Under the pieces are notes generated by a model. That model was not told the origin of the DNA. It searched no databases and was given only the letters and a program-made list of their open reading frames with translations. A stretch of 64,000 bases of DNA from an uncultured Ectothiorhodospiraceae bacterium (GTDB lineage: Bacteria; Pseudomonadota; Gammaproteobacteria; JAABTG01): positions 12,011 to 76,010 of the forward strand of contig CALMKJ010000156.1 in assembly GCA_937867305.1 (NCBI GenBank). Reading direction: 5' to 3'. The position numbers and the translations under genes were made by a program. Positions 2,158 through 47,028 of this stretch are shown here, piece after piece. The number at the start of each line of letters is the position of its first letter. The stretch's first letter is position 1.

Positions 2158-2297
2158 GACGCCCGCCTTCGGAGGGCCCGGCGCACACGCAGGTCGTACG
2201 CGTACGAGGTGGCCGCACCGAGTGCGACCCCGGTCGCGAACGTGACGAACGCGGACCCCACCGACCAGACCAGGTAGCCGAACAGGTCGTGGCTCAC
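2154..2297 (-). CDS. small hydrophobic protein (47 aa)
   Basis: GTG start overlaps the stop of 2294..4711 (GTGA), and its own stop overlaps the GTG of 1684..2157; single TM helix VSHDLFGYLVWSVGSAFVTFATGVALGAA. Confidence 0.3.
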   Translation of the reverse strand: MSHDLFGYLVWSVGSAFVTFATGVALGAATSYAYDLRVRRALRRRAS

Positions 2298-4711
2298 CGG
2301 AACGTCACCACCCTGGACTCGGCTTCCACCATGTGCCGCATCGACACCCAGCCGACGAACTTGCCCACCTTCGGCAGATGCGAAGTCCGGAACGTGGAGC
2401 CACCCGGAAGAGGCAGGTCGACCTGTTGACGGTTCGCCGACCACGGGGTCAGCACCTGTTCCAACGGCGACCAGTGCACCGGGTCACCTGACGCGAGCCG
2501 GTCCGGGGCCAACCGGTCGAACAACGCCAGATCCGCTTCCAGGTCCCGTACGCCCGCCTGGGTCAGGTACGACGTGCGAGCCACCCGGGCCGCGGAGACC
2601 CGCGACAGGACCGTCTCGACATCCTCACCGACCCGGTCAGCAACCCCGACGGCCAGTTCACGGTCACGGTCCCCGATGTACGGCAGATGCCATCCACCCA
2701 CCCCGACCAGGGTCGGGGTGGACGCCTCGTACGCGTCCCGCATCCGTTCCGCGACCATCCGGATCTCCGGTTGTGCGTCAGGGTGGCACCGTTGCGCGAA
2801 GTAGTTCTCCACCGGCCCGGTCCACACCGAGACGTGCATCATGTGCGGTTCCAGCAGCCGGTTCGTGATCGACTTGTGCACGCCCAGCTCCCGCAGCTCC
2901 GACCCGAGCTGGATCGTTGCCTCCCGGTGCAGGTCCCACTTGCGGCGAGCTACCGCTTCGGCTTCCGCGGCAACCGGGTCACCACCCTGCATGCCGGAAC
3001 GTTCACTGGCCCACACGACCGGGACAGCCGGGTGCGCACGAACATCGTCGATGACCTTCACGACAGGTCGGGCACGACTCGACGCCGAGTTCTTGGAGTT
3101 GTGCACGACGATGCCGTCGGCCACGAAGTTGTGCCACGGACCTTCTACTTCGATGTCGTAGGTCATCTGCACTCCCGCGTAACGAATCGCCTTGATCGCT
3201 ACCCACTTCCGGGCGATTCGCCGTGACCTGGCCTTCGGCTTCCAGTCAGGGTGTGGTTCCTTGTCCGCCGACGAGAAGACCGAAAGGTCGTCTCCGTTGT
3301 GCAGGGCGTCGGCGAAGCGGTCTTCGAGGTTGTTCGCATGAAGGTATCGGTGATGTGTGGCGCAGAGCGTGATGAGGTTGTCGAAGTTCTTGGCGAGACC
3401 GACGTCTTTCACCACCGGGACGATGTGATGGGCCACGAGGTCGCTGCCGCACCCTCCGATCTGGCACTTGAATCCGAACTTCTGATGTACGCGGTACGCC
3501 TCGTTCTGTGTCCAGCGTCCGATGTCGGCTCGTTCACTGGTGATGCCACCCTTCCACCAGTGGTGCTCAGCCCCACGCGCATGGCGTTGGTTTGTGCGCC
3601 GACCACGCGTCTTGGGGTTCTGGTAACGCAGACCCGTGTTCCACGGCTTGCGTCCTTTCAGGATCAGCGAGATGTCGTAGGGGATCTTGTGTCGCTGGAA
3701 CGACCGCTTGACCTGGTTGACGGTTACCCCAAGATCAGCAGCGATGGACGTCGCAGACGATCCCTCTTGCCGGCGGGCGAGTAGCCATGCCGGGTCGTCG
3801 AGGCAGGCGGGCTTCTCCGGGGCAACGCGCTTCCAGCCAAACTCGGCGTACGCGCGCTCTACGCGGTGGCGGGGGACGTCGAGACGGTCGGCGATCTGAC
3901 GGATCGTCATGCCTTCCGCCCTCAATGAGCCCACGGTCTCGCGATCAAGGAGCACCTGCCCGTTCGCTGCGAACATCGGGGAGTCTCCTTGGTAGAAGAC
4001 GAGGTCCTCACTGTTGCGGCGGAGGCCGGTGGCCTCTTCCAGCGTGAGCCAGCCCCGGTCTGTGAAGAAGAGGTGGGCCTTCGATGTTGTGATGACGTAC
4101 CCGTCGTCGAACTCAACCGTGTAGGTCTCTTTCTCACCAGACTCCCACACGTCTTTGACGTGTGTGTGGACGATCTCTCCGGTTTCCTCGTTGAGACACC
4201 TGAGCCACATCCTCGAGAGGTTGGTCCGAGTGTTGTATTCGACTTCGGGAGGGTTGGAGTACCAGCGCTTGAAGTCCGCGCCATTGATGACACGGCGGCC
4301 GTTCTCGTTGGACCGAGCAGGCAGGCCGTAGAGGCGAACGGCCTTATCGAAGCCGGTGTAGTGGGCACCGAGAAGCTTAGCCAACTCCGCGGGCCGGTAG
4401 TCGCGATCGTCGACCAGCAAGGATGTGTCGAACTTCCCGCGCTTCCGACGAGAGTGGCGTGTGCCTGAATGCCACTTCCGGAAGAGCTCGTCGATCCGCA
4501 TCTTTCCGCCGGCCGCACGACCGGCCTCAACCCCGTTAGGCCGGTCGAACCACAGCTCGACATCTCCAGCGAGGCACATGACAGCATGCGTGTTCTCCTC
4601 GGCGAGCACCCAACGGTGGTGGCGCTTCTCGAACGTGGTGATCCTGTCGCCGTCGGGACTGATCGAGTCGGCGATCACCTTCGCGTACACGAAGTCGTCT
4701 GACCTGTTCAT
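2294..4711 (-). CDS. thyX: FAD-dependent thymidylate synthase (ThyX)-like protein interrupted by an intein with an HNH homing-endonuclease domain
   Basis: Short N-extein ending ...KRHHRWVLAEENTHAVM, then an intein starting CLAGDVELWF and ending ...VVHN, with Ser at +1. The intein contains an HNH block (HHIVPV...CATHHRYLH). The C-extein has ThyX-like C-terminal blocks (HVSVWTGPVENYFAQRCHPDAQPEIRMVAERM, compared with ThyX ...VVTGNYRAWRHFIAMR...EIRRLA). Start placed at ATG of MNRSDDF, with an AGGAGG RBS and an ATGA overlap with the upstream stop. Confidence 0.55.
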   Translation of the reverse strand: MNRSDDFVYAKVIADSISPDGDRITTFEKRHHRWVLAEENTHAVMCLAGDVELWFDRPNGVEAGRAAGGKMRIDELFRKWHSGTRHSRRKRGKFDTSLLVDDRDYRPAELAKLLGAHYTGFDKAVRLYGLPARSNENGRRVINGADFKRWYSNPPEVEYNTRTNLSRMWLRCLNEETGEIVHTHVKDVWESGEKETYTVEFDDGYVITTSKAHLFFTDRGWLTLEEATGLRRNSEDLVFYQGDSPMFAANGQVLLDRETVGSLRAEGMTIRQIADRLDVPRHRVERAYAEFGWKRVAPEKPACLDDPAWLLARRQEGSSATSIAADLGVTVNQVKRSFQRHKIPYDISLILKGRKPWNTGLRYQNPKTRGRRTNQRHARGAEHHWWKGGITSERADIGRWTQNEAYRVHQKFGFKCQIGGCGSDLVAHHIVPVVKDVGLAKNFDNLITLCATHHRYLHANNLEDRFADALHNGDDLSVFSSADKEPHPDWKPKARSRRIARKWVAIKAIRYAGVQMTYDIEVEGPWHNFVADGIVVHNSKNSASSRARPVVKVIDDVRAHPAVPVVWASERSGMQGGDPVAAEAEAVARRKWDLHREATIQLGSELRELGVHKSITNRLLEPHMMHVSVWTGPVENYFAQRCHPDAQPEIRMVAERMRDAYEASTPTLVGVGGWHLPYIGDRDRELAVGVADRVGEDVETVLSRVSAARVARTSYLTQAGVRDLEADLALFDRLAPDRLASGDPVHWSPLEQVLTPWSANRQQVDLPLPGGSTFRTSHLPKVGKFVGWVSMRHMVEAESRVVTFR

Positions 4712-5154
4712 TCGGTCACCTCCTGCTGGTCGGGGCACACCCGGGCCACAGCCGGCAGGTCGCCGGTCAACACGTGACCGAACACGTCGCGGGCGTACCC
4801 GTGGGGTCGGTCGGTGAAGTGGAGCCGGTTCGGCGCCTCACCGTCACGCACGTACGAAGCCGGGTCGCCGAACTCCACGCCGGGCCGGTGGTGGTACACG
4901 CGGCGTTGCGCGTCAACGAACAGGTAGGTCTCCACCCGGTCGGTGCCGTTGTTGTACACGCGGGTCTCGTCGGTGGAGAACAGCCGCTTCACTTCGTACA
5001 GGCCCACCAGGACCGGTTCACCGGACTTGTCGAACTCGTAGCGCGACGACACGAGACGGAACGCCCACACGATCACCGGGTCTTCCGACCTGGTCAGCCG
5101 CAGCCCCACCGGGACCGGGGGTACCGGTACGTCGGCGGCGTGCTTGCCGGTCAC
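4708..5154 (-). CDS. hypothetical protein (about 148 aa)
   Basis: Track ORF 4708..5196; start moved to the internal GTG that forms a GTGA overlap with the stop of 5151..5390. Confidence 0.45.
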   Translation of the reverse strand: MTGKHAADVPVPPVPVGLRLTRSEDPVIVWAFRLVSSRYEFDKSGEPVLVGLYEVKRLFSTDETRVYNNGTDRVETYLFVDAQRRVYHHRPGVEFGDPASYVRDGEAPNRLHFTDRPHGYARDVFGHVLTGDLPAVARVCPDQQEVTE

Positions 5155-8312: not shown

Positions 8313-10832
8313 TCAGAACACCCGGTCGAGCACCTGCGCGTCCTCGTTCACCTGGCCGGCAGCAGCCAACGCCGCCGCCGCGGCCTCACGCCTCTTGATG
8401 TCCTCGGGGTTCGTCGACGACATCGCCAAGAACTCAGGCGACAAGTCAACCCGGACCGGAACAGCACGACCCGACAAGTCGACGTAGATGCACACCGACC
8501 CTCGCAACACCTCGCCGGTCACCGGGTCACGCAACGCCTTCATCGACATCGGGTTCGGCGAGACCGCCTGAGCCGAGTTACCGCCGATCGTGGCCTTCGC
8601 CATGATCCGCTGCAAACGGGCCGGTGTCGGATCCAACTTCCACAACTCGCACGCCGCCCGCGCCTCCTTCTCGTCCTCGATCGACAAGACCAGACCACGG
8701 GAGATGTACCCGGCCAACCCGGCACTCACCGCGTCGGAGACCCGCTGAGTGAACAGCATCGGGAGCACACCCTGGCTCCGGGCCAGACGCCCCAGCCGCT
8801 CCACCTCGGCACGACCAGCCCCCAAGAACACCCACGCCTCGTCGAGCATGACCACGCCCTGACGGCCGGTCAACGCCATCGCAGACCCGAACACCATCAT
8901 CCGGACCACCGCCAACGCGACCCGTTGCGGCAACGTCTGGTTCAGCGCACCCGGCTCCGGCAGATCCAGGTAGGCGTCCCCCACCTTGATCAGGGTGATC
9001 CCGCTCGACGTACGCAGACCCTCCGTGCTCGGGTTCACCCCGACGATCGCCCGGAACATCGGCGACGACGACGCCAACGCCTCCACCCGCGACACCATCT
9101 CCGGCGGCATCGGGATCTGGTCCCGCACCGCGATCGCCAACGCCTGACCGATACACGTCGCGCCCTTGTCGACCCCGTAGGACAGGGCGTGCGTCAACGG
9201 CACCTCCATGTCGGCGACCGCGGTACCCCACGGGTTGATCGCCATGAGCATCGACGCGGCCAGCTCGGCGCCCACCTCCTTCTTCGCAGAGAACCGGATC
9301 GGGTCGAAGATGCCGTCCGCGGTCACCAGCGTGTCCAACGACGCGACCTGGCCACCGGCCGCCAACACCACAGAGGAATGGTCGGAACCCATCTTCGGGT
9401 CCACGATCACGACAGGGCGACCCATCCGGGCGTACTGGTCGGCCAACGACAACAGCACCTGGGTCTTGCCGGACCCGGTCGCACCCGCACACAACGCGAT
9501 CGGCAGCCCGTCGCTCGTCGACGCGGCCGTCGGGGACAGGTACGCCGGCTGCCGGTCCCGTTCAGTGAACCCGAGCAACGCACCGTCCGGGTCGCCCACG
9601 AACGACAACGACGGGATACCCGAACACGCGACCGTCTGAGCCGGCAGGTCATGCAGATGCGGGTTCGCGCGCAGGTGACTGCACAACCACGTCTCCGCCA
9701 TCGCACCGTGCTGCCGGAAGTCCATCATCGCCAACCGGGCCGGTGCGTCCGCGGACAACACCTGGTGCACGTCACGGAACTGACCGTCGAACCCGGCCAC
9801 GATCGACGCCGACGCCAACGTCGGAGGAGGGTTCCCGCCGGTGGCGTACAACCCTTCGACGCCTTCAAGAAGCGCCATCATCTCGACCTGCTCCGCGCGC
9901 TCCATCTTGCCCTGCTTGGTGCGCTCGTTGATGTCGTCGATGAACCGCTTCCGCTGCCGGCGCAGCTCCTCACGGGTGATCGCACCCGGTTCGATGACAC
10001 CGCGGATCGACACGGCCAACGCCCCCGCACCGACCAGGTCGGCCACCCAATGCGACGTCGGGTCGGTCGCCTTCACGAAGGACAGGTCCAGGTCCTGGAC
10101 GGACGCGAACGTGACCGCGTGCGTGCCCGGGACGGTCGTGTGCGTCCACGACGCACACTGGTCCACCCCCGCCTCGTCGGCCATCCGCACCGACTCGACC
10201 GACTCGAACACGTGCACGTGGTCCGGGTGGACCAGCATCGGGGTGTCGGCGTAGTACCCGTGGTTCCACCACGCGTTCGCCAACCGGACGTCGTCAGCGG
10301 ACACCTTCACCAGACCAGACCGGTCCATCGCGGCGTTCATCCGCTCCGTGTCCTCGTCGAAGTCCGACAACGGCACGTTCCCAGCCACCACCGTCTCCAC
10401 GACCGAGTTGACCGCGTCCAAGAGACCACCACCGCCGAGCTTGTCGCGCAACCGCACCCCGACGAGCAGCAGCCGGCGGTCGATCGCGGTGTTCGGGTAC
10501 CGCTGCCGCAGCACCTCGGACAAGGCGTGGCCACGTCCCGGCGCGAACCGCTGAGGCACGTTCACCAGCAACACATGCACCTCGCGGTACGAACCACGAG
10601 ACGTCGCCCGACGCCGCATCCCGACGTTCACCTGGCCGGCCAGCTCCTCGAAGAACGACAGCAGCGGCTCAGCCGCCGTCAACGACTCGGCCGGGTTGCG
10701 GGCATCGACGACTGGGCCCAACGGCACCGCCCGGTACATCCACAACGCCCCGTTGACGCCTTGGAGTCGCCCGTCGGCGAGCCGGGACCGCAACGTCGTC
10801 GGCCAGGCCGGCTGCTCGGAAACCTCGATCAC
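8313..10832 (-). CDS. VirB4/TrbE/CagE-like conjugative ATPase (839 aa)
   Basis: Walker A CAGATGSGKTQ followed by VVIVDPKMG; Walker B VVMLDEAWVFLG (the DEAW hallmark of VirB4-type ATPases); size and domain order fit the family. Confidence 0.6.
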   Translation of the reverse strand: MIEVSEQPAWPTTLRSRLADGRLQGVNGALWMYRAVPLGPVVDARNPAESLTAAEPLLSFFEELAGQVNVGMRRRATSRGSYREVHVLLVNVPQRFAPGRGHALSEVLRQRYPNTAIDRRLLLVGVRLRDKLGGGGLLDAVNSVVETVVAGNVPLSDFDEDTERMNAAMDRSGLVKVSADDVRLANAWWNHGYYADTPMLVHPDHVHVFESVESVRMADEAGVDQCASWTHTTVPGTHAVTFASVQDLDLSFVKATDPTSHWVADLVGAGALAVSIRGVIEPGAITREELRRQRKRFIDDINERTKQGKMERAEQVEMMALLEGVEGLYATGGNPPPTLASASIVAGFDGQFRDVHQVLSADAPARLAMMDFRQHGAMAETWLCSHLRANPHLHDLPAQTVACSGIPSLSFVGDPDGALLGFTERDRQPAYLSPTAASTSDGLPIALCAGATGSGKTQVLLSLADQYARMGRPVVIVDPKMGSDHSSVVLAAGGQVASLDTLVTADGIFDPIRFSAKKEVGAELAASMLMAINPWGTAVADMEVPLTHALSYGVDKGATCIGQALAIAVRDQIPMPPEMVSRVEALASSSPMFRAIVGVNPSTEGLRTSSGITLIKVGDAYLDLPEPGALNQTLPQRVALAVVRMMVFGSAMALTGRQGVVMLDEAWVFLGAGRAEVERLGRLARSQGVLPMLFTQRVSDAVSAGLAGYISRGLVLSIEDEKEARAACELWKLDPTPARLQRIMAKATIGGNSAQAVSPNPMSMKALRDPVTGEVLRGSVCIYVDLSGRAVPVRVDLSPEFLAMSSTNPEDIKRREAAAAALAAAGQVNEDAQVLDRVF

Positions 10833-12061
10833 CGGTTCGACTCCTTCTCAGCTTGCTTGCGGGCCTTCCGCTTCTCCTTCTTCTCTGCCTTCGACAACCC
10901 GGTGTCGGTCTCGGCCTCCGGGTCCGGCTCAGGTGCGGTCTCCGTGCCAGTCCCCTCGTCCGGGTCGGTCACGTCATCAGGCGGGGACAACGTCTCCTCG
11001 CCTGATGGGTCGGACTGCTCCGAAGGGTCGCCGTCCTCGAACGTCGCGTCGCCGGTCACCGCCGCCACCGTCCGTGACGTGATCGCGTTCCCGTGACGCT
11101 TCAGGTGGGCGCCTTCACCGGGGCCACCCCACGCCACCACTCGAGGAGCGGCAGTGTTCGCCGACTCGACGAGCACGTCGAACGTCACCTCCGGAGCCTC
11201 GTTGGCGTCCTCGATCGGTGCGACCGCCCAGTCGATGCGGGCGCTCACCCGCACGATCACCGAATCCGGAACCCGGTCGGTGCCCTCCTCAGCCGGGACC
11301 AAACTCACCACCCACGCCTCATCCGCGACCGGGTCACGCAACCGAGCACCCGACAAGGGCAAGTACGAATGCGACGCGTCCGTGTCGCCGACCGTCTGGT
11401 GCAGCAAGCTCGGGTCACCGGACGCGTACGCGTCCACCCACGCCGACACCGCGGTCACCACGTCTTCGGTCGGGGTCGTCTCATCCAGGTCCGGGTACGG
11501 GTTCGGGGCCCACGACGAGTCCGCCGGCAACACCGGCGCCAGCGACGGCGACGACGCCACGACCGCGCCGTGCGCCTCATCGAACAGGACCAGCACCGAC
11601 GCGACGAACATCGCACCGCCAGGAGCCGACAACGTGACCCGGTGAGTCTCCTGACGGAACTTGCCCTGGGTGACCAGGTCCGGGTCCGTGCCCTCAGCCG
11701 GCTTCCACGTCGACGACGTCGCCGAATCCCACCCGACCACTTCACCGCCCGGCACCGGGGACGGGTCGCCGGCCAGCCATTCACGCACCGCGACCAACGC
11801 GACCGAACGGGTCTCAGAGAACTTGTCCGGGCCAGCTTCCGCGGTCACCGCCGAACCGGAACCGGACGCGCCGGCCGTCACGACGACCCCCACGAGGGCC
11901 AACGGCAGCAGCACCAGCGACGCCCACACGTACACGCGCCACCACCGGGCCCGTTTGCGCTGCTTGTCCGCCGACGGGAGGCCAGCCCGAGGAACCTCTT
12001 CGGCCTGCTCCCACCAGTTGTTCGCCGACGACCGGGCCTTCTTCGTCTTCACCCCGAGCAC
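10829..12061 (-). CDS. membrane-anchored protein (410 aa; one N-terminal TM, acidic and Pro-rich C-terminal tail), possible transfer-apparatus component
   Basis: Track ORF. The bitopic topology of a single N-terminal TM helix with an extracytoplasmic domain resembles VirB8- or TcpC-like proteins encoded next to VirB4 genes. This is an inference only. Confidence 0.45.
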   Translation of the reverse strand: MLGVKTKKARSSANNWWEQAEEVPRAGLPSADKQRKRARWWRVYVWASLVLLPLALVGVVVTAGASGSGSAVTAEAGPDKFSETRSVALVAVREWLAGDPSPVPGGEVVGWDSATSSTWKPAEGTDPDLVTQGKFRQETHRVTLSAPGGAMFVASVLVLFDEAHGAVVASSPSLAPVLPADSSWAPNPYPDLDETTPTEDVVTAVSAWVDAYASGDPSLLHQTVGDTDASHSYLPLSGARLRDPVADEAWVVSLVPAEEGTDRVPDSVIVRVSARIDWAVAPIEDANEAPEVTFDVLVESANTAAPRVVAWGGPGEGAHLKRHGNAITSRTVAAVTGDATFEDGDPSEQSDPSGEETLSPPDDVTDPDEGTGTETAPEPDPEAETDTGLSKAEKKEKRKARKQAEKESNR

Positions 12062-12064
12062 GAG

Positions 12065-12628
12065 TCACGCCTTCTTCAGCAAGGTGACGACATCTTCGAG
12101 GTCTTTGCGCAGGTCGGCCATGTTGAGCCCGTGCACCGTCTTCGCGACCACGATCGACGCCTTCGCCGACGACGCCGGCAGGTCCGAGGACGGGGCCAAG
12201 CCCATCGACGCGAGCAGCGACCAGATCCGCTTCATCCGCTGCGGCCCGAGCTCGCCGGCCACCACCGAAGCCTCGAACACGTCCGAGGTGCTGATCTTGT
12301 CCAGGTCGCCGAGAACCTGGGTCGAAGACCGGTCCGCCGTCATGATCGCCGCGGTGAGGTCGGCCAGGTCGTTGTCGCACCCCAGTAGGTGGGACGCCAC
12401 GTCACGAGTCGACTGCTCCGCGGCCACCACGTCTGCTGCCTTCGCCGCGACCCTGCGGACCAGCCGGTTCGTGTGCGCCCGGTTCGACCGCGACGGCCGG
12501 CCGGTCGCACCGGGGTGGCTTTCGTCGCCGGTCTCCGGCGTCTCGTCGACGACGGGGTCAGCGTCGTGCAGCTCGATGTCGAGCTCCTCGACGTCCAGCG
12601 GAAACCCGGGTGAGGCGATCTCGGTCAC
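12065..12628 (-). CDS. hypothetical protein (187 aa), GTG start
   Basis: AGGAG RBS 6 nt upstream of GTG; class-3 motif about 45 nt upstream. Confidence 0.5.
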   Translation of the reverse strand: MTEIASPGFPLDVEELDIELHDADPVVDETPETGDESHPGATGRPSRSNRAHTNRLVRRVAAKAADVVAAEQSTRDVASHLLGCDNDLADLTAAIMTADRSSTQVLGDLDKISTSDVFEASVVAGELGPQRMKRIWSLLASMGLAPSSDLPASSAKASIVVAKTVHGLNMADLRKDLEDVVTLLKKA

Positions 12629-12639
12629 GAAGACTCCTG

Positions 12640-12870
12640 GAACTCAATGTGGTGGGCGGGTCGGGCACTGGTCACCATGCGCAAACCACGGCACGGGCGA
12701 CCGGTGTTACGCCCTCCCCTGTGCCAGGTGGGCCGCGTCGGGTCGCCGACAACAAGAACGCACCCGGTCCGTCTGGGCGCTGACCGGGTGCGGCGAACAC
12801 GAACCCGACGAGGGCCCTTGCTACGCCGCCAGAGGGGCGACGCCGTCTAGCCCGTGTTCGCCTTTCCCTG
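12640..12870 (-). promoter_or_regulatory. 230-bp intergenic leader carrying a class-3 motif (TTTGCGCATGGTG, about 45 nt before the 12628 GTG) and two TGGCACAGGG(G) class-2-like copies with no ORF behind them
   Basis: Seen directly; possible regulatory hub or small-RNA promoter. Confidence 0.3.
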
Positions 12871-12925
12871 TGCCACCAGCCAGCACGCGGGCCTTCAACG
12901 CGCCGCCGAGAACCGGCGCGAAGCC

Positions 12926-13378
12926 TCAGTTGTTGGGGACCCCACGGTCCTCGGTGTGCCGGACGACCCGCATCTTCTTGGTTACGTTGCCGGTCGTGAA
13001 CTCCTCGACCTCGACCCACACCAGGACACGGTGACCGATCAGCGACTTCACCTTGCGGGCCATCGCCAGCCCCTCCGGGTTGTCGGTCCGCTCGGTCCGC
13101 ACCTGCTCGCACCCGGCCGGCACACCATCGGTGGCCCGGTCGGTGCCCGTGTGCAGCGTGATCACCCCACGGGTGCTCGACTGCTCCTTCTTCACGTCAC
13201 GCACGATGCCGGAGAAGACCTTGCACTTGCTGATCTGCTCGGCAGCCTTCGCCTGCGCGACCACGAAGCCGGTCATGCTGGTGGCGAAGTACGCGTCGAG
13301 CGCGGCGGGCAGCGCAGCGGCGACAGCGGCGGCGATCTGGTCGCCCTGGGCGACGTCGGCGGGGGTCTGGGTGCTCAT
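12926..13378 (-). CDS. hypothetical protein (150 aa)
   Basis: Internal ATG (MSTQTPADVAQGDQIAAAVAAAL...) of track ORF 12926..13648, preceded by a GAAGGAAG RBS; the upstream part of the ORF is Arg/Gly-rich. Confidence 0.45.
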   Translation of the reverse strand: MSTQTPADVAQGDQIAAAVAAALPAALDAYFATSMTGFVVAQAKAAEQISKCKVFSGIVRDVKKEQSSTRGVITLHTGTDRATDGVPAGCEQVRTERTDNPEGLAMARKVKSLIGHRVLVWVEVEEFTTGNVTKKMRVVRHTEDRGVPNN

Positions 13379-13413
13379 CTGGTTCTTCCTTCGGTGGTTG
13401 GGTTGGGTGGTGC

Positions 13414-15825
13414 TCAGCCGGTGACGGCCTGCGGGCGGGACGGGGCAGCGAGAACAGCCCACGGGGGCGTGGTCGGGGCGTCGGCCTCGTACAGCCGGTG
13501 CGCCGCCAACGCCAGCGTGCGGATGTGCTTGGTTCCCAGCGCCACCCACGCGTCCCACGCGGCGGCGTCCTGACCGAACGGCAGCGGGTGCGTCTCGATG
13601 AACGACCGCAGCAGGCCACGGAGCCGCATGTTCAGCCCGTTCATCCACGACGACGAACCGGACAGCTCGTGCTGGGTCGGGCGCAGCATCACCGCGAACG
13701 TCTGCGACAGACCGTCCAGCGCGTCCTTCGACAGCGCCACGTCGGCCTTCACGATCTCCTCGTAGGCCAGCGAGACCATCCCGAACACGGCGGTCGCCGC
13801 GAAGCTGTTGCCGTTCAAGAGTCCGCGCGACTCAGGCTCCCAAGCCTTGTCCTCGGAAAACACGTGCTCACTCATCATGGCTCCTACTGCGGCCTCGACC
13901 GCGACTGGTGGGGTGGAACTGACCTTGTTGTGTGCGGAACCGTCCGGTTCATGCACCGTGTCGGCCGCCGAACCGAAGTCCTCTTCGACATAAGTCGGCA
14001 CCTCGACCCGCAACGGGCGAGCCACCGGGATCCGGAAACTGCCTTCCGGTGCGGCGTTGCCGGTCCGGTCGGTCAGACCAGCGGCTTTCGCGGCCGGGCA
14101 TGTGTTCACCAACGGGCACCACCCGCACAGCGGACCCGTCTTCGTCGGGAACGACGCCTCGGACTCGAACCGTTTCAAGTCGGCCCACGCCACCTCGAAG
14201 CCGTCCAACGTCTTCGACATGTACGGCCTGCTGATTGCGGCGTCCCGCGACTTCCCGACCGCCGTGTAGTACAGCCGGGCCTTCACGGGGCGAACCCCGG
14301 TGTCGTTGAACAGCGCCTCGTCGTACAACCGCATCTGGTCGCCGTGGTCGTCGCCGTAGAACTTCATCTTGTCCCGGGGCGGCATCTTCCCGGTGTTGTG
14401 CGTCGGAACCATCGTGGGCCCGCACAGGTACAACGAGTCGAGTGCGTCGACCTGGATGCACTGCGTCGGCACCGGCTGAGCCAGGCGCATCGAAGTGATG
14501 GTCCGGTGCACGGGCACAAGAGCCGGTTCGGTTGCCGTACTGACCCCCGGCACTTCAAGCGGGATGACCCCGGTCGGGTAGAACGCCACCAGGTGACGGC
14601 GACCGCACGGTCGAACCATCGACACCCCGAGGCTGGCGACCAGCTCGACCACCAGGGCCATCAACGCTTCGTCGGTGGAGACGAACCCGGCACCACCGAA
14701 CTCCGCGTCCCAATGCCCGCGCGCGTCCATCAACCCTTGCAGCAGCGCGATCCGCTGGGTCCGGGAACCCCGCAGGTACAGGTTCCGGATCTCATCGTCC
14801 CCGCACACGTCCGGGACCACGTCGTCCACGGACGTGCCTGCGGACCCCAACCGGACCCCGGTCACCCGTGGGTCCAACGGCAGGTCGGCGTCCGGCAAGT
14901 CCAACGCGGAAGGGTTCGACACCGTGATGGTGCCGTACTCCCCGTCGTCGTGACGCCGGCACAGCATCTCGAACAGCGTGTCCGCGTCCACCACCGACGT
15001 CACCGGTACAGGCCCGGCGCCCCGGTCCTCGATCTGCCACAGGTGCACGTTGTCGCACACCACGCGGGCACCGTCGGAGAACACGATCTCGTAGCACGGG
15101 CGGTGGTGGACCTGAGACTTCAACACCACCTCGGTCGGGGTGCCGTCCGAGCCGAGCACCTTGTCGCCCACCTGCAGCTCCCCCATCGTCGACCAGCCGG
15201 TCGGCGTCGGGATGGGGGTGTCGAGGGCCAGACCCTTGTAGTCGACGATGGCGACCCCTTCGGACCCGTCCGGCAGCGTCACGTGGTCGAGACGGTCGAT
15301 GTACCCGACGAACGGGATGCCCCGCACCGCCGAGTTCGCGGTGAACCCGACCTCGATCGCCTTCACCTGGACGTGCCGCGGGTCTTCGATGTCCCACAGG
15401 CCAGCCATCCGTTGATGGACCAGCCCGTGCCAGTTGGCTCGTTTCGCCAGCGTGGCCGGGTCGCCGGCAGGCCACAGCCGAAGCTTGTGCGCCTCCAGCA
15501 GCCGCATCGCCTCGTCGAAGCTGCGCTTGAAGTACGGCAGGGCGAACAAGTCCTCGAAGATCTTGTGGACCGCGTCCCCCAACGGGGCGGCCGCCAACGG
15601 GTCCTCGTGCCGCGGCAGCAGCCGGTCGGCGGCCCACCGTGACGGGCACCCGCTCATCGCCTTCGCGGTCGACGGTGACAACGCGGACCGCGCCACGACC
15701 CGGATCGCCTCGTCGTTGAACATGAGACGGTCGCCGTCCCACGACGCGACCAGGCGCAGGTCCGGCTTCTCAGCCGACGACCCACAGGTAGGCGCAGGGG
15801 TAGCCGCATCGGTCGGGGTGTTCAC
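13414..15825 (-). CDS. Cas4/RecB-family PD-(D/E)xK exonuclease (Fe-S, Cys4) interrupted by an intein with a LAGLIDADG homing endonuclease
   Basis: Exteins carry an N-terminal Cys (MSGCPSRW), a VAIVDYKG...TGK nuclease motif split by the insertion, and a C-terminal CGWCPLVNTC (C-x2-C-x5-C). The insert runs from ...LALDTPIPTPTGW... through LYLRGSRTQRIALLQGLMDARGHWD (LAGLIDADG block) to ...LYLCGPTMVPTHN, followed by Thr at +1. It has no Cys or Ser at intein position 1, which is class-3-like. GTG start lies 6 nt after class-2 motif GTGGCACAGG. Confidence 0.6.
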   Translation of the reverse strand: MNTPTDAATPAPTCGSSAEKPDLRLVASWDGDRLMFNDEAIRVVARSALSPSTAKAMSGCPSRWAADRLLPRHEDPLAAAPLGDAVHKIFEDLFALPYFKRSFDEAMRLLEAHKLRLWPAGDPATLAKRANWHGLVHQRMAGLWDIEDPRHVQVKAIEVGFTANSAVRGIPFVGYIDRLDHVTLPDGSEGVAIVDYKGLALDTPIPTPTGWSTMGELQVGDKVLGSDGTPTEVVLKSQVHHRPCYEIVFSDGARVVCDNVHLWQIEDRGAGPVPVTSVVDADTLFEMLCRRHDDGEYGTITVSNPSALDLPDADLPLDPRVTGVRLGSAGTSVDDVVPDVCGDDEIRNLYLRGSRTQRIALLQGLMDARGHWDAEFGGAGFVSTDEALMALVVELVASLGVSMVRPCGRRHLVAFYPTGVIPLEVPGVSTATEPALVPVHRTITSMRLAQPVPTQCIQVDALDSLYLCGPTMVPTHNTGKMPPRDKMKFYGDDHGDQMRLYDEALFNDTGVRPVKARLYYTAVGKSRDAAISRPYMSKTLDGFEVAWADLKRFESEASFPTKTGPLCGWCPLVNTCPAAKAAGLTDRTGNAAPEGSFRIPVARPLRVEVPTYVEEDFGSAADTVHEPDGSAHNKVSSTPPVAVEAAVGAMMSEHVFSEDKAWEPESRGLLNGNSFAATAVFGMVSLAYEEIVKADVALSKDALDGLSQTFAVMLRPTQHELSGSSSWMNGLNMRLRGLLRSFIETHPLPFGQDAAAWDAWVALGTKHIRTLALAAHRLYEADAPTTPPWAVLAAPSRPQAVTG

Positions 15826-16004
15826 GTTCTACCTGTGCCACCCGACCTGCCCCGGCGGCAGAGTCTTAGCAGGCCCCAGCCCTTGCCGGAGCCGGCCCGA
15901 CACAGCGGACCGTGCACGCCAACCCCAGCCGGCTCAGACCGCCGACGGCGAGAGGTAGCGCCGACGACGCGTCGAGCTCCAACCGGTACCCGGTCACCGT
16001 GACC

Positions 16005-16403
16005 TCACCCTTCGACGGGGTTCTTCTTGCGCCGCGACAACCGGGTCCACCACCCGCCGGGTGCCTCCAACACCACGTCCGCGGACTCCGACGGGGTCGG
16101 TACGGCACGGTGCTGCGCGAACCACTCGTCGACCTCCGGTGGCAGCTCCTCGACGAACACCTGACGTTCCGCCGCCGCATGGCACGCGGCCAGCACACCG
16201 GGGACCGAACCCCGGTCGGCTTCGACCAGCACCCCGTTAACCGGGACCAGGGCCTTCGCCTCGAACGCGGCCTCCACCCTCGCCATGATGCTGTCGACAC
16301 ACGTGAACGTGCCTTCAGTGCCGTCCGGGCCCGGCTGGTACATCAACCTGTACCCGTCGATCCGCACGCGCAACGGCGGCGGCGCGCCCCGGTGCCTGCC
16401 CAT
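16005..16403 (-). CDS. hypothetical protein (132 aa)
   Basis: Track ORF; GAGAGGGG RBS; immediately downstream of the sigma-factor gene. Confidence 0.4.
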   Translation of the reverse strand: MGRHRGAPPPLRVRIDGYRLMYQPGPDGTEGTFTCVDSIMARVEAAFEAKALVPVNGVLVEADRGSVPGVLAACHAAAERQVFVEELPPEVDEWFAQHRAVPTPSESADVVLEAPGGWWTRLSRRKKNPVEG

Positions 16404-16414
16404 GTGGGCCCCTC

Positions 16415-17422
16415 TCAGCTATCGACCCCGGTGATCCCGAAGTAGGTCTTCAGCACCTCCTGTGCCACCTGCTTCACCTCGGCGATCTTGCGGCGCACCG
16501 TCGGTGCTGCGATCCCGACGATGTCGGCGATGTCCGCGCTCGTCGGGGGCCGGTCGAACGACGCCGCCATGTCGGTGCCAAAGAACGCCTCGGCGACCTT
16601 CCCGTGCGACTCCGAGACCTGGTAGCAGCGCTCGATCGTCACCTTCACCAACAGGTCCCGCTCCGCCGAATGCAACACCCCGTCCTGGTCGTTCGGGTCC
16701 GGGGTGCACGACACCTGCTCGCCGTAACCGGCAGCCCCGTGCGTGCCGCGTTCGTCGTGCGGGTCCGACCGGGACTCCAAGTCCCGCAACTCCACCGCCG
16801 GCCCCGAGTTCATGACCTGGTAGTCCTCGACCGTGCACAGCATCCCTTGCCGGGCCGCGTCCTTGCGGTGGGCGCGCATCCGGCGGTTCGTCTCCTCCAC
16901 GACCTGCTCAGCGGTCGGGTCGCACACGCCTTCGACGAGCAACTGGTCGCGGGTCTGCCGCATCTGGTTGATCCGGCGCTTCAACGACACCTGGCGTGAC
17001 GCGGTGTTCATCCCGGCCGACGAGTCGACCCACACCCGGACCCGCGACTTGGCCCGGTACGACACCATCCCGGTGAACGAGGTGATCTCGTCGACGGTCA
17101 GCGTCCCGTCGCGGACGTCTTTGACGACCAGCAGGAACGCCTCGTTGACCAGCGACAGCACGTCGCCGCCGTGGGTGGTGCGGTCCAGCCGGTACGACAT
17201 GGCGATCCGGGTCGCGATCTTGCGCAGCTCCGGCTGCTGGGCACGGGCGAAGTCCTCCAAGATCGCGTCGCCTTCAGCCGGGGTGGCGGACGCGATCGCG
17301 GCCAGCCATTCGGTCGGTGCAGACGACCCTGCCAGGTCCGGGGCCGTCATGGGCACGAGCGTCGACTGCCACTCCGCGGGCGCGGGGGCCTCAGTCGCGT
17401 CGAGGCAGTCGTAGTCGGCCAT
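16415..17422 (-). CDS. sigma-70 family RNA polymerase sigma factor (about 335 aa, SigF/FliA-like size)
   Basis: Region-2-like (LSLVNEAFLLVVKDV...) and region-4 HTH (IADIVGIAAPTVRRKIAEVKQVAQEVL). Start placed at the ATG 2 nt after the stop of the mIHF-like gene (TGACCATG). Confidence 0.55.
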   Translation of the reverse strand: MADYDCLDATEAPAPAEWQSTLVPMTAPDLAGSSAPTEWLAAIASATPAEGDAILEDFARAQQPELRKIATRIAMSYRLDRTTHGGDVLSLVNEAFLLVVKDVRDGTLTVDEITSFTGMVSYRAKSRVRVWVDSSAGMNTASRQVSLKRRINQMRQTRDQLLVEGVCDPTAEQVVEETNRRMRAHRKDAARQGMLCTVEDYQVMNSGPAVELRDLESRSDPHDERGTHGAAGYGEQVSCTPDPNDQDGVLHSAERDLLVKVTIERCYQVSESHGKVAEAFFGTDMAASFDRPPTSADIADIVGIAAPTVRRKIAEVKQVAQEVLKTYFGITGVDS

Positions 17423-17424
17423 GG

Positions 17425-17931
17425 TCAACGGCCCTTCTGTGTCGTGGCGGTCGCAGGCCGCGGCGCTGAAGGGAAGCCGGGCCAAGGCACTGTGTGCGGC
17501 TTGGCGGCGTCCATCCAGGCGTACAGCCTTTTGGCCCCAGCCCGCGGGACGGTCAACCAGAGGATGTCCTTGTCACCGAGATCGTTCGGGGCCGAATCAA
17601 GTCTGACAGCCACCGCCGACAAGAACGCATCCGCGCGCACCCGGCCCACGTTCGGCTGGGCCAACACGAGTTGGTTCAGCTTGATGCGACGCAACGGCCC
17701 GCCCTCGGGACCCATCGCGGAGACCACCACGTCGAACGCGGTCACCTGCCCGGTTGCGACCATCAGCAGTGCCTCGGAGCGCGCTCGTTTCGCCTTCACC
17801 GACGCGCTACGAGCCGCAGTCGTGTCCTTCCCGAGCTGGCACACAGACGCGGTCCCCTGGTTCCCCTGACAAACTCCCGTGTCGGGGTGACCTGGCGCGC
17901 GAGCTTCGGTGGTAGTGACGGTGGTGTTCAT
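17425..17931 (-). CDS. mIHF-like (actinobacterial integration host factor) DNA-binding protein
   Basis: C-terminal block RRIKLNQLVLAQPNVGRVRADAFLSAVAVRL matches the mIHF pattern (K-V-S-A-LL-x-LP-x-VG-x-V-K-A); GAGGAGG RBS; class-3 motif 22 nt upstream. Confidence 0.5.
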   Translation of the reverse strand: MNTTVTTTEARAPGHPDTGVCQGNQGTASVCQLGKDTTAARSASVKAKRARSEALLMVATGQVTAFDVVVSAMGPEGGPLRRIKLNQLVLAQPNVGRVRADAFLSAVAVRLDSAPNDLGDKDILWLTVPRAGAKRLYAWMDAAKPHTVPWPGFPSAPRPATATTQKGR

Positions 17932-18078
17932 AGGTGCCGGCCTCCTCGGCCAGCACCATGCGCAAACCTAGTGCTACCCCAATCCGGCATAGTCTGATGC
18001 GCGGAAAGATAGTCATAACGGACTATTGAGCGTGGCGTGCTCTTCCTTTGCGTTTCCGTGTGGCCTGCGTCACACGGG

Positions 18079-19170
18079 TCAGAAACCGCCGGACAGCCAC
18101 CCGTCCGACCCGTCAGAGTCCTCATCGACGAAGTCGGAGTCGAAACCGTCCGACCTCGTCATCGACAGACACCCGCTCATCGGGTCCGGTTGCACCGACA
18201 ACGCCGCCGCCACCCGGTCCGTGGAGACCTTGTCCTTCGGGTACAGGTCCCGGACCGCAGCGACCACCGACTCCACGTCGCGCAAGTCCAGGTCACGGGC
18301 CACATCCCGGATCCTGCGCCCGATCCGCGGGTCACCGACCCGTTGCCGGATCGCCTCCGCCGCGTCGCGGCGAACCGCCCGGTTCACGTACCTCAACGGG
18401 TCAACCCGGCGCATCGACTCAGGCGTCAGAATCTTCTCCACGATCGCGTCCAGCTTCCCGATCCGGCCTTCGACCCCGTACAGGAAGTCGGTGATCACCG
18501 ACTCCAACGCCACCTCGTCCAACAGCAACCGGTCCGGCATCCCCTGGAACGCACACACCTCGTGCGACACCCCGAAGTGGGCGCGGCGCAACATCAACCG
18601 CACCCTCGGTGCCATCAACGACCGCAGCTCCCACCGGGCCATCTCGCCTTCCTCGGCGATGACGGTCAACCGTTGCCGCAGCACCCGCTCCGGCTCGGTC
18701 ACCACCGACGCGAACACCGGGACCCCGAACTCGTCCTTCTCGACCTGGTCCTCGAAGCCGACGTCGTCGAGGACGACCTTGCACACCCCGGACTCGTCGT
18801 GACCCATCGACAACGTCGACCAGACCAGCTCGGTGTTCTCGGTCAGCACCGCCAACGGCTCCGACCATTCCAGCCGGACCGGCATCGAGAGACGCTCACC
18901 GTTGCGCCCGTTGTCCTTACGCCCCACGTTGATCTTCGAGCACATCCACCCGAACGACTCCGGAACGAACAACCCGCCGGACACCGGCAGGTCACCCTCC
19001 TCGACGAGACGGGCCGCCAACCGGCCCACCACGATCCGGTGCAGCAGCTCGGTCAACGTCCACAACGACGCGTGCCTGCCGTTGACCGCCAACGCGGACA
19101 GGTTCTCGTCGTCCTCCTCGAGGACCCCAGGCTCGTCTAGGTCCAGGGCCTCGACAGGTGCGGTGGTCAT
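18079..19170 (-). CDS. hypothetical protein (363 aa)
   Basis: Track ORF with normal composition; ATGA overlap with the stop of the 19167..21236 gene. Confidence 0.5.
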   Translation of the reverse strand: MTTAPVEALDLDEPGVLEEDDENLSALAVNGRHASLWTLTELLHRIVVGRLAARLVEEGDLPVSGGLFVPESFGWMCSKINVGRKDNGRNGERLSMPVRLEWSEPLAVLTENTELVWSTLSMGHDESGVCKVVLDDVGFEDQVEKDEFGVPVFASVVTEPERVLRQRLTVIAEEGEMARWELRSLMAPRVRLMLRRAHFGVSHEVCAFQGMPDRLLLDEVALESVITDFLYGVEGRIGKLDAIVEKILTPESMRRVDPLRYVNRAVRRDAAEAIRQRVGDPRIGRRIRDVARDLDLRDVESVVAAVRDLYPKDKVSTDRVAAALSVQPDPMSGCLSMTRSDGFDSDFVDEDSDGSDGWLSGGF

Positions 19171-21236
19171 CCGCGTCCGCCGAGGCCGAAGAGCCGACGT
19201 CGTCGACGAGACGGCTGGTCCTGTTCCTCCTGGATCTGCTCAGGAACCTGGAGCCCCGGGAACACGTTGCCGAGCACCGCACCCATGAACTTGGCGAACT
19301 GCGGCACCTCGACCGGCAGGCCGCCGGCGTTCTGCCGCTCCGGGATGGCCGTATCGGCGTAGCAGACCCCCAGGAACACCGAGTGCTCGGAGATCGCGGC
19401 AGCCAAGCCGTCCTGGTAGAAGCTCAGGTTGTTCGGCACCCGGTTCAGGAACGAGAGCTGCCGTTCCCGAGGCACACCGTGCGCGGCGAACTTCTTGAGC
19501 CGCGACAGCGTGTTCGTCACCCCGGACGAGGACACGTCAGTTGAACACATGCCCCACGCGCCGGAGGCCAGCAACGGAAGCAAGAACCGGTCGACCATTC
19601 CGGAGGAGTCCTTCGCCTCCACGATCTGGGTGTCGATGACGACCAGGTCGCACATCGCTCGCGCGTCGGCGACCAGTCGCATGTACACCTCCGGGGTCAC
19701 CACGGACTCGTCGGCTAGGTGCGCCGGCGGTGCCGTGATGAGCCCGAACCGGAGCGGCGTCTGCTTCAGGTCACGCGCCTCGGTCAACGTGACCGGCGAG
19801 ATGAGCGTCTGCCGGATGTCGCCGGTGACCGCGTAGTTGTAGACCGACGGCAGCGACGCCATCCCGATGCGCAGGTAGGTGCGGATGTCGCCCTGGCCCA
19901 TGTTCGCGTCGATGAGGATGACCCGCAGGCCACGTTCGGCGGCGTGCTGAGCCAGAGAGCAGGACGCGGACGTCTTGCCGGTGCCACCTTTCGCGGCCCA
20001 ACTGACCACCACCTGGCCTTGGCCCTGGTCGGGCGAACCGGTGACCAGGTGACCGGTCCGGGACACGGGCACCAGCTCGCCGCCTGGGCTCTGCACGTAC
20101 GGGCCGTCTGTCGACACCCCGCTGTCGCGCGCCTCATGGAGCTGCTGCGTCGCGATAGCGGCGAACACGTCCTCGTCGGGCTCCGGCTCGGTCTCATCGA
20201 CCGGCTGGAGCGGCGGCGCGGTGAACACGGGCTCGACCGGAGAGGGTGCGACGGTGGGTGCCGGCTCCGGCTGAACCTCCTCGCCCGTCGGCGCGGTGAA
20301 CACGGGCACCTTGTCGGGCTCCGGCTCGTCCACGGCAGGCGCGACGAACACCGGGGTCTCCGGTACGGGCTCTACCCACGGGTCCTCGCCGACGGGCTCC
20401 GCCTCCACCGGCGGTGCGGTGAACACCGGCTCCGACTCCGGGTCAGGCTCGACCGGGGGCGCAACGAACACCGGGGTCTCCGGTGCTGGCTCGTCACCCC
20501 ACGGGTCTTCGTCGGAGTGGTGTTCCCCGGCGGCCGGAGCTGTGAACACCGGGTCGGCCGCCGGGGAAGTCTCTGAGTCGTCCTCGACCGGCGGTGCGAC
20601 GAACACCGGCTCCGGGTCGGACGGCACCTCGAACACCGGGTCGTCGACCGGCTCCGGGGCAGGCTGCACCGGCGGCGCGACGAACACCGGGTCGACGGCA
20701 GGAGGCTGGTCGCCCCACGGGTCGTCGACGACAGGCTCCGGCTGCGGTGCGGTCACCGGGACGTACGGGTGCTCCTCGACCGGGGTCGGAGGGGCAGGTG
20801 GAGCAGGAGGAGCCGGCTCCGGTTCGGCGTAGTCGCCGACGAACCCGTCGACCGTGCCCCGCTCGTCGACCTTGAACGCCGCGAACGACGGGTGGACCGC
20901 CCGGTTCGCCAGCGCGAGAAGCTCCGCCAGCGTCATCGGGACGAACGCCTCGATGACCGAGTCGTCGGCGAAGTCGACACCGTCACCGGTCACGGTGCGC
21001 ACCACCACGACCGTCGTCTCGTGCGAGAACCGGGTCGCCCAGGCGCGCAGGCCCGGCCACTTCGAGTCGGCGACGAAGATCGGGAACGACCCGAACTCGT
21101 CGGTGGCGGCCCGGATGTTGGTCGCGGTCGCCTTGTAGTCATCGGCGGTGATGACGGTGTACCCGGCCGCCGTCAAGGCGGCGGCCAGCGACGGGAGTCG
21201 CATCACGCCGATCATGTGGGCTGACGTTGTGTTCAC
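19167..21236 (-). CDS. TadZ/CpaE/ParA-family P-loop ATPase with an N-terminal receiver-like domain and a long Pro/Glu/Val-rich linker
   Basis: Deviant Walker A VVVSWAAKGGTGKTSAS... characteristic of the ParA/MinD/CpaE family. The N-terminal about 100 aa have a CheY-like alternating pattern, and about 200 aa of PEPV-type repeats follow. GTG start lies 6 nt after class-2 motif GTGGCACAGG. Confidence 0.55.
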   Translation of the reverse strand: MNTTSAHMIGVMRLPSLAAALTAAGYTVITADDYKATATNIRAATDEFGSFPIFVADSKWPGLRAWATRFSHETTVVVVRTVTGDGVDFADDSVIEAFVPMTLAELLALANRAVHPSFAAFKVDERGTVDGFVGDYAEPEPAPPAPPAPPTPVEEHPYVPVTAPQPEPVVDDPWGDQPPAVDPVFVAPPVQPAPEPVDDPVFEVPSDPEPVFVAPPVEDDSETSPAADPVFTAPAAGEHHSDEDPWGDEPAPETPVFVAPPVEPDPESEPVFTAPPVEAEPVGEDPWVEPVPETPVFVAPAVDEPEPDKVPVFTAPTGEEVQPEPAPTVAPSPVEPVFTAPPLQPVDETEPEPDEDVFAAIATQQLHEARDSGVSTDGPYVQSPGGELVPVSRTGHLVTGSPDQGQGQVVVSWAAKGGTGKTSASCSLAQHAAERGLRVILIDANMGQGDIRTYLRIGMASLPSVYNYAVTGDIRQTLISPVTLTEARDLKQTPLRFGLITAPPAHLADESVVTPEVYMRLVADARAMCDLVVIDTQIVEAKDSSGMVDRFLLPLLASGAWGMCSTDVSSSGVTNTLSRLKKFAAHGVPRERQLSFLNRVPNNLSFYQDGLAAAISEHSVFLGVCYADTAIPERQNAGGLPVEVPQFAKFMGAVLGNVFPGLQVPEQIQEEQDQPSRRRRRLFGLGGRG

Positions 21237-21322
21237 GCCGTCCCTGTGCCACACCCCGTCCACGAGGTGGCCAGAAACGATGGTGCGGAGGTAAAACCGC
21301 AGGTCAGAGCCGGTTCAGGAGG

Positions 21323-47015: not shown

Positions 47016-47028
47016 CGTGTTGACACCT

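Follow-up and report, generated by a model that had tools for sequence, protein, structure and literature searches.

Class 3 inteins are defined by a non-nucleophilic residue 1, a Trp(B:12)-Cys(F:4)-Thr(G:5) (WCT) triplet, a His at B:10, a terminal Asn and a Ser or Thr at +1 (PMC2807308, PMC5050341, PMC7664689), and it is these published criteria that we apply below. Those inserted into the PD-(D/E)XK motif of Cas4/RecB-like exonucleases make up the second-largest mycobacteriophage intein group, with 40 in cluster C1 (PMC5050341). A preprint describes 138 actinobacteriophage Cas4 exonucleases with inteins, locates the Cas4 insertion site in RecB motif III (EFK↓T; arrows mark the junctions between extein and intein), and reports that class 3 inteins whose LAGLIDADG domain is canonical are almost confined to Cas4 and terminase genes (bioRxiv 10.1101/2025.01.02.630785). 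Here we describe an intein of this kind in a 64,000-nucleotide stretch of contig CALMKJ010000156.1 (positions 12,011 to 76,010; hereafter the window), where it interrupts the gene for a predicted iron-sulphur (Fe-S) PD-(D/E)XK nuclease. Judging from sequence, structural models and analogy with characterised inteins, we put the probability that this is an active class 3 intein splitting a nuclease of a plasmid-type element, serving splicing only and no longer homing, at about 0.85.

Actinobacteriophages are already known to carry class 3 inteins at this motif, and the present copy is a clean but ordinary example, which leaves the knowledge of splicing mechanisms unchanged. What sets it apart is the replicon, apparently a conjugative element, the nuclease subfamily, which has an extra C-terminal domain, and the degenerate state of the endonuclease. 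The same intein lineage can now be placed in a backbone nuclease of what appear to be conjugative plasmid or integrative and conjugative element (ICE)-like elements of Actinomycetota. Our literature searches found no publication on Tfu2914 and none naming a RecB family exonuclease with an intein.

Insert boundaries and empty-site relatives

The gene, on the minus strand (Table 1), and all the short sequences quoted from it in a first-pass annotation of this DNA were found in place. Its reading frame is intact across 803 codons, and the product is identical to a protein in public collections (P0001). The spliced sequence, used as query, retrieved 112 homologues, to which a 113th cluster (P0113) was added separately. 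Most homologues of the spliced nuclease are 480-630 amino acids (aa) long, several are annotated as plasmid-borne, and they come from Nocardioides, Arthrobacter/Pseudarthrobacter, Paeniglutamicibacter, Brachybacterium, Glaciihabitans, Citricoccus and related genera, with Nocardioides supplying the nearest named relatives of the exteins. The GC content of the present DNA is about 68%.

The insert is absent from 108 of the 113 family clusters, which read DYK↓TGK contiguously, and intein-free homologues of up to 67% identity align across this site without a gap. The insert is exactly G198-N477, between K197 (-1, in motif III DYK) and T478 (+1, in TGK). In the precursor, VAIVDYK occupies aa 191-197, GLALDTPIPTPTGW runs from aa 198, LYLCGPTMVPTHN lies at aa 465-477, and T478-G-K comes next. 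Since the intein-free alleles read DYK↓TGK, intein residue 1 is G198, and L199, where the first-pass annotation had let the intein begin, was ruled out; its claim of an insertion in the DYK motif is confirmed in all but that start.

In agreement with these boundaries, Pfam PDDEXK_1 matches the precursor in two stretches (64 bits) with weak Hint signals in the gap, whereas removal of residues 198-477 leaves a single match covering positions 2-247 of the 247-position profile (84.8 bits). The insertion is thus in frame, as expected of an intein: orthologues exist without it, and its deletion restores a contiguous host protein whose two extein halves, as had been proposed, align end to end. There is an annotation lesson in this, namely that an 803-aa 'PD-(D/E)XK protein' is in fact a 523-aa nuclease plus an intein.

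Class 3 signature and fold of the intein

Every position of the class 3 signature is present: Gly198, D258-x-x-H261-x-W263, C456, T475-H476-N477 and T478. Gly198 takes the place of Cys, Ser or Thr at position 1, and Gly1 is common to all nine DYK-site relatives that were collected; W263, C456 and T475 coincide in the alignments with the WCT residues of Catera gp206 and of the solved inteins 6BS8 and 6RIX; the His at B:10 falls in a D258-N-V-H261 variant of block B; and at +1, where this copy has T478, relatives have T or S. The insert aligns over its whole length with annotated phage inteins, and H261, W263, C456, T475, H476 and N477 are invariant in comparison with the inteins of Catera gp206, Traft412, Frankenweenie, CN1A and Rollin. 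Among 12 inteins of the same type and 44 broader relatives, Gly1, H261, W263, C456, T475, H476, N477 and T478 are invariant or nearly so, and in the 44-sequence alignment the His and the Trp are invariant and C47, D61, C259, T278, H279 and N280 (intein numbering) are each kept in at least 90% of sequences. The suggestion that the intein lacks Cys1 or Ser1, carries Thr at +1 and is class-3-like was therefore borne out by every sequence test run.

The class-defining nucleophile position is C456, in VPTQCIQVD (F:4), and its distance of 21 residues from N477 equals that of Cys320-Asn341 in the Bethlehem prototype (PMC2807308). The first-pass annotation was right in expecting a class 3 block F Cys, which is the one in TQCIQVD and not, as it had supposed, the Cys of the LYLCG that it quoted. 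The latter residue (C468) was considered as nucleophile and rejected because it is not conserved, being Ala in Catera gp206, in CN1A and in the solved DnaB inteins.

The conservation of the intein blocks, on which the original proposal had been made to depend, is also evident from comparisons with solved structures. In a phmmer search of Protein Data Bank (PDB) sequences, both splicing halves matched 6BS8 (M. smegmatis DnaBi1; E=6e-28), and 6RIX was matched at E=7.5e-28 (6RIX/6RIY, M. chimaera DnaB-1, about 1e-27), an agreement well outside what chance would give. An AlphaFold model of the intein (predicted local distance difference test, pLDDT, 89.3; predicted template modelling score, pTM, 0.87) as a whole superposes on PI-SceI, and its match to 6BS8/6RIX has a target-normalised TM-score of 0.83-0.86, further Foldseek matches being gp41-1 and Hedgehog. 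Blocks A, B, F and G of the Hedgehog/intein (HINT) fold and the H476-N477 terminus are all found. By its sequence signature and its modelled fold, then, the insert is a class 3 intein.

These data also bear on the route of splicing. A class 1 or class 2 route, for example a KlbA-type reaction in which Thr478 attacks the N-terminal junction directly, would be compatible with a position 1 that, as in class 2, has no nucleophile, and the Bethlehem model places Thr+1 and the block F Cys at about equal distances from the scissile bond (PMC2807308). We nevertheless regard such a route as exceedingly unlikely, given that class 2 inteins lack the WCT triplet (PMC2807308), which is present here together with DxxH and the Cys48 equivalent, that the nearest solved relatives are class 3 inteins, and that the block F Cys is absolutely required in the prototype (PMC2807308).

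Compared with Catera gp206 and the actinophage Cas4 inteins (Tori & Perler 2011, as cited in PMC3196547; Kelley et al. 2016, PMC5050341; bioRxiv 10.1101/2025.01.02.630785), the window copy shares an Fe-S PD-(D/E)XK host of Cas4/RecB-like type, insertion behind the motif III Lys at (D/E)-x-K↓T, the WCT triplet, Thr+1 and the bipartite HINT plus LAGLIDADG layout; identity is 30-36% for the intein as a whole and 53-65% for its N-terminal splicing block. It differs in its replicon, which is a phage there and apparently a conjugative plasmid or ICE-like element here; in its host nuclease, which is a member of a separate family of 500-600 aa that has an additional helical domain at the C terminus; in its degenerate and truncated endonuclease; and, with respect to Catera gp206, in having Gly1 instead of Ser1.

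The closest solved structures, Msm DnaBi1 (6BS8, PMC6195587) and M. chimaera DnaB-1 (6RIX, PMC7664689), likewise have Lys at -1, an LALDTP(I/L)PTP...GW start, a DxxH-x-W block B, a VP.(R/Q)C(V/I).VD block F and an MVPTHN end, and the non-catalytic Cys of the DnaBi1 redox-trap disulfide (Cys48 there, C244 here) is conserved. Whereas these are mini-inteins with Ala1 in the P-loop of a replicative helicase, the present intein has Gly1, sits in a nuclease active site and keeps an endonuclease remnant of about 170 aa. The Bethlehem DnaB prototype (PMC2807308) is alike in its non-nucleophilic residue 1, WCT triplet, Thr+1, LAGLIDADG domain and 21-residue spacing from Cys F:4 to Asn, and unlike in its Pro1, helicase extein and intact endonuclease.

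Endonuclease decay and predicted splicing

Where intact relatives read DPxxLGxWLGDG and LLRGLMDTDG, this intein reads DPRVTGVRLGSAG and LLQGLMDARG. Neither catalytic Asp remains: S328 stands in its place in motif 1 (LGSAG) and R369 in motif 2 (MDARG), and about 45-95 residues are missing between the motifs and about 10 after motif 2. The Pfam model LAGLIDADG_3 gives 11.7 bits against a cutoff of 22.5 bits, and Hom_end, at 12.8 bits, is also below its cutoff; the intact intein of the chromosomal gene L007 described below reaches 36.8 bits with LAGLIDADG_3. Two motifs with catalytic Asp/Glu and a full alpha-beta-beta-alpha-beta-beta-alpha x2 scaffold, as an active LAGLIDADG endonuclease has them, are not found in this copy; on its sequence the domain shares ancestry with LAGLIDADG endonucleases yet is not to be filed as an active member. 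The earlier label of a LAGLIDADG intein is thus historically true of the domain and misleading as to its state, which is degenerate. Intein GC (0.68) and GC at third codon positions (0.89) both match those of the exteins, which indicates long residence. The loss of both catalytic aspartates and of much of the DNA-binding half points to a resident, vertically inherited, splicing-only intein that would be unable to home.

Same-site relatives place this copy within a series. The intein occurs in five of the 113 plasmid-type nuclease clusters, at DYK↓T/S in every case: it is 409 aa long with its endonuclease motifs intact in P0089 and P0113, 280 aa with a decayed endonuclease in the window, 251 aa and likewise decayed in P0072, and 142 aa in P0005, a mini-intein from which the endonuclease has been lost. 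Two further copies lie outside this census. One belongs to a homologue in a Nakamurella metagenome-assembled genome (L006; 279 aa, motif 1 decayed); the other is an intact intein of 377 aa in L007 (5935..7953, plus strand), a chromosomal gene of an uncultured actinobacterium that encodes a RecB-family nuclease of about 295 aa with the insertion at the same DYK↓TG site. A scan of genome contigs gave just two distant relatives. One gene family thereby displays every stage of the intein life cycle (empty site, full intein, decayed endonuclease, mini-intein) and offers a natural series that is handy for studying endonuclease decay and intein retention.

Beyond the family, the closest database relatives of the intein (P0116-P0187) are mostly in dCTP deaminases (EGK↓A...HN↓SS), and others sit after a Lys in DnaB or terminase P-loops and in DYK nucleases; all class 3 relatives collected have Lys at -1 and Ser or Thr at +1. 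In Pseudomonas phage Rollin (L005, OR577172.1), a gene at 1108..2835 on the plus strand that is annotated as 'hypothetical protein' encodes a Cas4-like nuclease with a class 3 intein (FDLK↓G...THN↓TGK), so that this combination of intein and site is not restricted to Actinobacteria. The family provides a further example of intein sharing between phage, plasmid and chromosome through a common active-site motif.

That inteins of one type occupy DYK↓T/S in phage Cas4, plasmid-type and chromosomal RecB-family genes could be taken to mean that the intein is still mobile, spread among these nuclease genes by an active LAGLIDADG endonuclease, and P0089, P0113 and L007 do retain intact LGDG and MDTDG motifs. 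For the present copy we consider continued mobility very unlikely, with S328 and R369 in place of both catalytic Asp, the deletions between and behind the motifs, an LAGLIDADG_3 score at about half its cutoff and a base composition that is fully ameliorated.

Splicing of the precursor, by contrast, is likely. The data establish the gene structure, the boundaries, the conservation of residues, the fold and the endonuclease decay, while the occurrence of splicing and its chemistry are inferred from homology to class 3 inteins, namely those of Bethlehem DnaB, Msm/Mch DnaB and Catera gp206. The intein parts D177, D195, K197 and C60 from Q497, Y501 and the three remaining Fe-S Cys, so the nuclease would be assembled only after splicing. 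A precursor of 87 kDa would be made with the intein directly behind the catalytic Lys of motif III; C456, which H261 and T475 would activate with support from W263 and D258, would attack the K197-G198 peptide bond to give a thioester branched intermediate on the intein; the N-extein would then be passed to the side-chain oxygen of T478; cyclisation of N477 would release the 30-kDa intein; and an O-to-N shift would yield the 57-kDa nuclease with its native DYK-TGK sequence.

The pattern of conservation is consistent with such a reaction. Of the intein columns, 49 reach at least 80% conservation among 43 relatives, and the window copy agrees with the consensus in 48 of these, the sole mismatch lying in the endonuclease domain. 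Identity to same-site inteins amounts to 59-74% in the splicing blocks, 36-47% in the middle domain and 40-54% in the exteins, a pattern, with the splicing blocks better conserved than both the remnant of the endonuclease and the exteins, that would be expected if splicing were under purifying selection. In addition, the Catera gp206 intein, which has the same site and belongs to the same clade, is reported to splice efficiently (PMC3196547).

Several points weigh against an active intein. A related Gly1 intein, that of Arthrobacter sp. FB24 Arth_1007, is a dead pseudogene (PMC3196547); the WCT triplet, when grafted onto a class 1 intein, was insufficient for splicing (PMC7664689), so that the triplet alone is no proof of activity; and that selection keeps the host nuclease active is an assumption. 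The intein might then be a dead, non-splicing relic and the nuclease gene in effect a pseudogene, or the source of an inactive precursor, tolerated because the plasmid can dispense with it. The homing endonuclease is clearly decaying, FB24 documents a decayed class 3 intein that does not splice, and the presence of the intein in just 5 of the 113 clusters makes it dispensable to the family. The FB24 locus does resemble the window copy in being actinobacterial, of class 3 lineage and with Gly1 (PMC2807308), and in being a decaying element retained in a genome. However, it lacks His B:10 and Cys F:4, does not splice even with both reverted (PMC3196547), and has 66 extein residues where the window copy has full-length conserved exteins; because of these losses the precedent is held to be unlike the present case. 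With the 803-codon frame intact, the catalytic and structural splicing positions retained, the splicing blocks better conserved than their surroundings and all extein catalytic and Fe-S residues in place, we judge a dead relic to be improbable and retain an active, splicing-only intein as the preferred interpretation.

Whether splicing might respond to conditions can be considered by analogy. C244 aligns with Cys48 of Msm DnaBi1, a position kept in at least 90% of relatives, and the pair C244-C456 is the equivalent of the Cys48-Cys118 redox trap of that intein. DnaBi1 requires Cys48 for splicing, and under oxidative stress this residue and the catalytic Cys form a reversible disulfide by which splicing is paused (PMC6195587). 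Conditional splicing of the nuclease is therefore conceivable. A bolder idea, which we hold tentatively and think unlikely, is that the homing-less intein has been kept as a post-translational switch, that is, domesticated, its lineage perhaps moving across phage, plasmid and chromosome nucleases via (D/E)xK↓T. If this were true, oxidative or zinc stress could keep the Fe-S nuclease in its inactive precursor form, from which it would be freed once reducing conditions return, and the element would offer a case in which a plasmid DNA-processing enzyme is regulated by a domesticated class 3 intein.

Host nuclease and genomic setting

The 523-aa host protein is, by its sequence and the modelling of a homologue, an Fe-S PD-(D/E)XK nuclease of RecB/Cas4/AdnAB type. 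The RecB motifs of Cas4/AddB/AdnAB-type nucleases are all present, D177 (motif II), D195-Y-K197 (motif III) and Q497-x3-Y501 (motif IV) being invariant in family alignments. Across 67 homologues C60 is kept in at least 90% and C567-x2-C570-x5-C576 is invariant; at the sequence level these predicted Fe-S ligands give the four-Cys arrangement C...CxxCx5C. The AlphaFold model of an intein-free homologue (P0002; mean pLDDT 86.6) comprises a nuclease domain, an acidic disordered linker and a helical C-terminal domain, with motif III on beta-strand 191-199, ending at the Lys, and the intein point directly after the strand. Foldseek matched its nuclease domain to mycobacterial AdnAB, the Cas4-family ACE1, Dna2, AddB and Cas4, nearly all of which we take to be Fe-S PD-(D/E)XK nucleases. 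The homologues, the PDDEXK_1 match and the fold matches together uphold the earlier identification of a Cas4/RecB-like Fe-S nuclease with a one-plus-three Cys pattern.

The conserved C-terminal all-helical domain, modelled in P0002 at a pLDDT above 95, is present throughout the plasmid-type nuclease family and had no Pfam, NCBIfam or PADLOC match. Within the otherwise variable acidic disordered linker a DFGSA motif (EEDFGSAAD) is conserved, which in some homologues, for example P0010, is repeated two to three times; its sequence is suggestive of a short linear interaction motif.

We also considered a Cas4 proper, associated with clustered regularly interspaced short palindromic repeats (CRISPR). 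The precursor had no NCBIfam match, hence no Cas4 match there; PADLOC found no defence-system match for the nuclease family and its neighbours; and no cas genes were seen among the window open reading frames (ORFs) scanned with Pfam, NCBIfam and PADLOC, CRISPR arrays not having been searched for. A CRISPR-associated Cas4 was rejected, as the flanks hold plasmid partition and conjugation genes and the protein is Cas4-like in fold only.

The gene content of the window points to a conjugative plasmid or ICE-like element of actinobacterial type, with the nuclease as a backbone gene. On its lower-coordinate side, downstream on the minus strand, the nuclease is followed by three unannotated ORFs and then by a VirB4-like AAA_10 ATPase, and beyond the ORF that lies upstream of it come an unannotated ORF and a ParA-like ATPase (Table 1). 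The minus-strand gene order over 8313..21263 is that of megaplasmid pACHL01 of Pseudarthrobacter chlorophenolicus A6 (L008, NC_011879.1 326624-346156): ParA-like ATPase, hypothetical protein, helix-turn-helix (HTH) protein as annotated in pACHL01, PD-(D/E)XK nuclease, three hypothetical proteins and VirB4-like ATPase. MOB-suite types pACHL01 as non-mobilizable, which suggests that the backbone module is poorly characterised. On the plus strand, the ArdC-like, TrwB-like and FtsK/SpoIIIE-like ORFs point to an actinobacterial-type conjugative element.

No phage structural or terminase genes were matched among the window ORFs scanned against PHROGs and Pfam, and a phage or prophage origin of the window was ruled out on this ground and on the presence of conjugation and partition genes. 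With megablast, the gene had no match among sequenced phages and window positions 1-25000 had none among sequenced plasmids, so that neither collection holds a close sequenced relative of the element.

Table 1. Coordinates of the precursor gene, its parts and other features of the window
Feature	Position in window	Strand	Residues	Basis or remark
Whole precursor gene	13414..15825	-	1-803	GTG start, 803 aa plus stop codon, 86.8 kDa; N-extein, intein and C-extein
N-extein	15235..15825	-	1-197	PDDEXK_1 match; family-invariant D177, D195, K197
Codon of predicted Fe-S ligand C60 (N-extein)	15646-15648	-	60	
Class 3 intein	14395..15234	-	198-477	280 aa, 29.9 kDa, Gly1 to terminal Asn; intein-free alleles, 6BS8/6RIX homology, AlphaFold2 (AF2) model
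Intein N-terminal splicing region, blocks A and B	15031..15234	-	intein 1-68	Alignments; holds C244, D258, H261 (B:10), W263 (B:12, W of WCT)
Decayed LAGLIDADG remnant	14509..15030	-	intein 69-242	Alignment to intact relatives; Pfam below cutoff
Motif 1 remnant VTGVRLGSAG	14836-14865	-		S328 replaces catalytic Asp
Motif 2 LQGLMDARG	14716-14742	-	362-370	R369 replaces catalytic Asp
Intein C-terminal splicing region, blocks F and G	14395..14508	-		Alignments; holds C456 (F:4, codon 14458-14460), Y466, T475 (G:5), H476, N477
Codon of T478 (+1)	14392-14394	-	478	Leads into the TGK motif of the C-extein
C-extein	13417..14394	-	478-803	Family alignments; AF2 model of P0002 and Foldseek; motif IV Q497-x3-Y501
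Predicted Fe-S ligands C567/C570/C576 (C-extein)	14098-14127	-	567-576	
DFGSA motif in linker	~13966..13983	-	~615-620	Conserved in the family
All-helical C-terminal domain	~13426..13878	-	~650-800	P0002 model
VirB4-like AAA_10 ATPase	8313..10832	-		Domain match; minus-strand module
ORF at the place of the annotated HTH gene of pACHL01	16415..17485	-		Upstream of nuclease; itself without domain match
ParA-like ATPase	19167..21263	-		Upstream of nuclease
TrwB-like coupling protein	30443..33109	+		Weak match
FtsK/SpoIIIE-like translocase	36036..39989	+		
ArdC-like antirestriction protein/metalloprotease	51333..52391	+		
FtsK/SpoIIIE-like translocase	53682..55571	+		
ThyX precursor	2294..4738	-		814 aa
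ThyX intein	~3098..4576	-		493 aa
tRNA-Lys(UUU)	46943..47016	-		
tRNA-Leu(CAA)	47457..47530	-		

A second intein was found in the precursor of ThyX, a flavin-dependent thymidylate synthase (Pfam Thy1). It is of class 1 type (VM↓CLAGDVEL ... GIVVHN↓SKN), and its inserted domain combines HTH motifs with an HNH endonuclease and is not of LAGLIDADG type; the window element thus carries two unrelated inteins. No third intein was detected by phmmer with the splicing blocks of both inteins among six-frame ORFs of at least 80 aa. The two tRNA genes, for tRNA-Lys(UUU) and tRNA-Leu(CAA), lie near a switch of coding strand and of GC skew.

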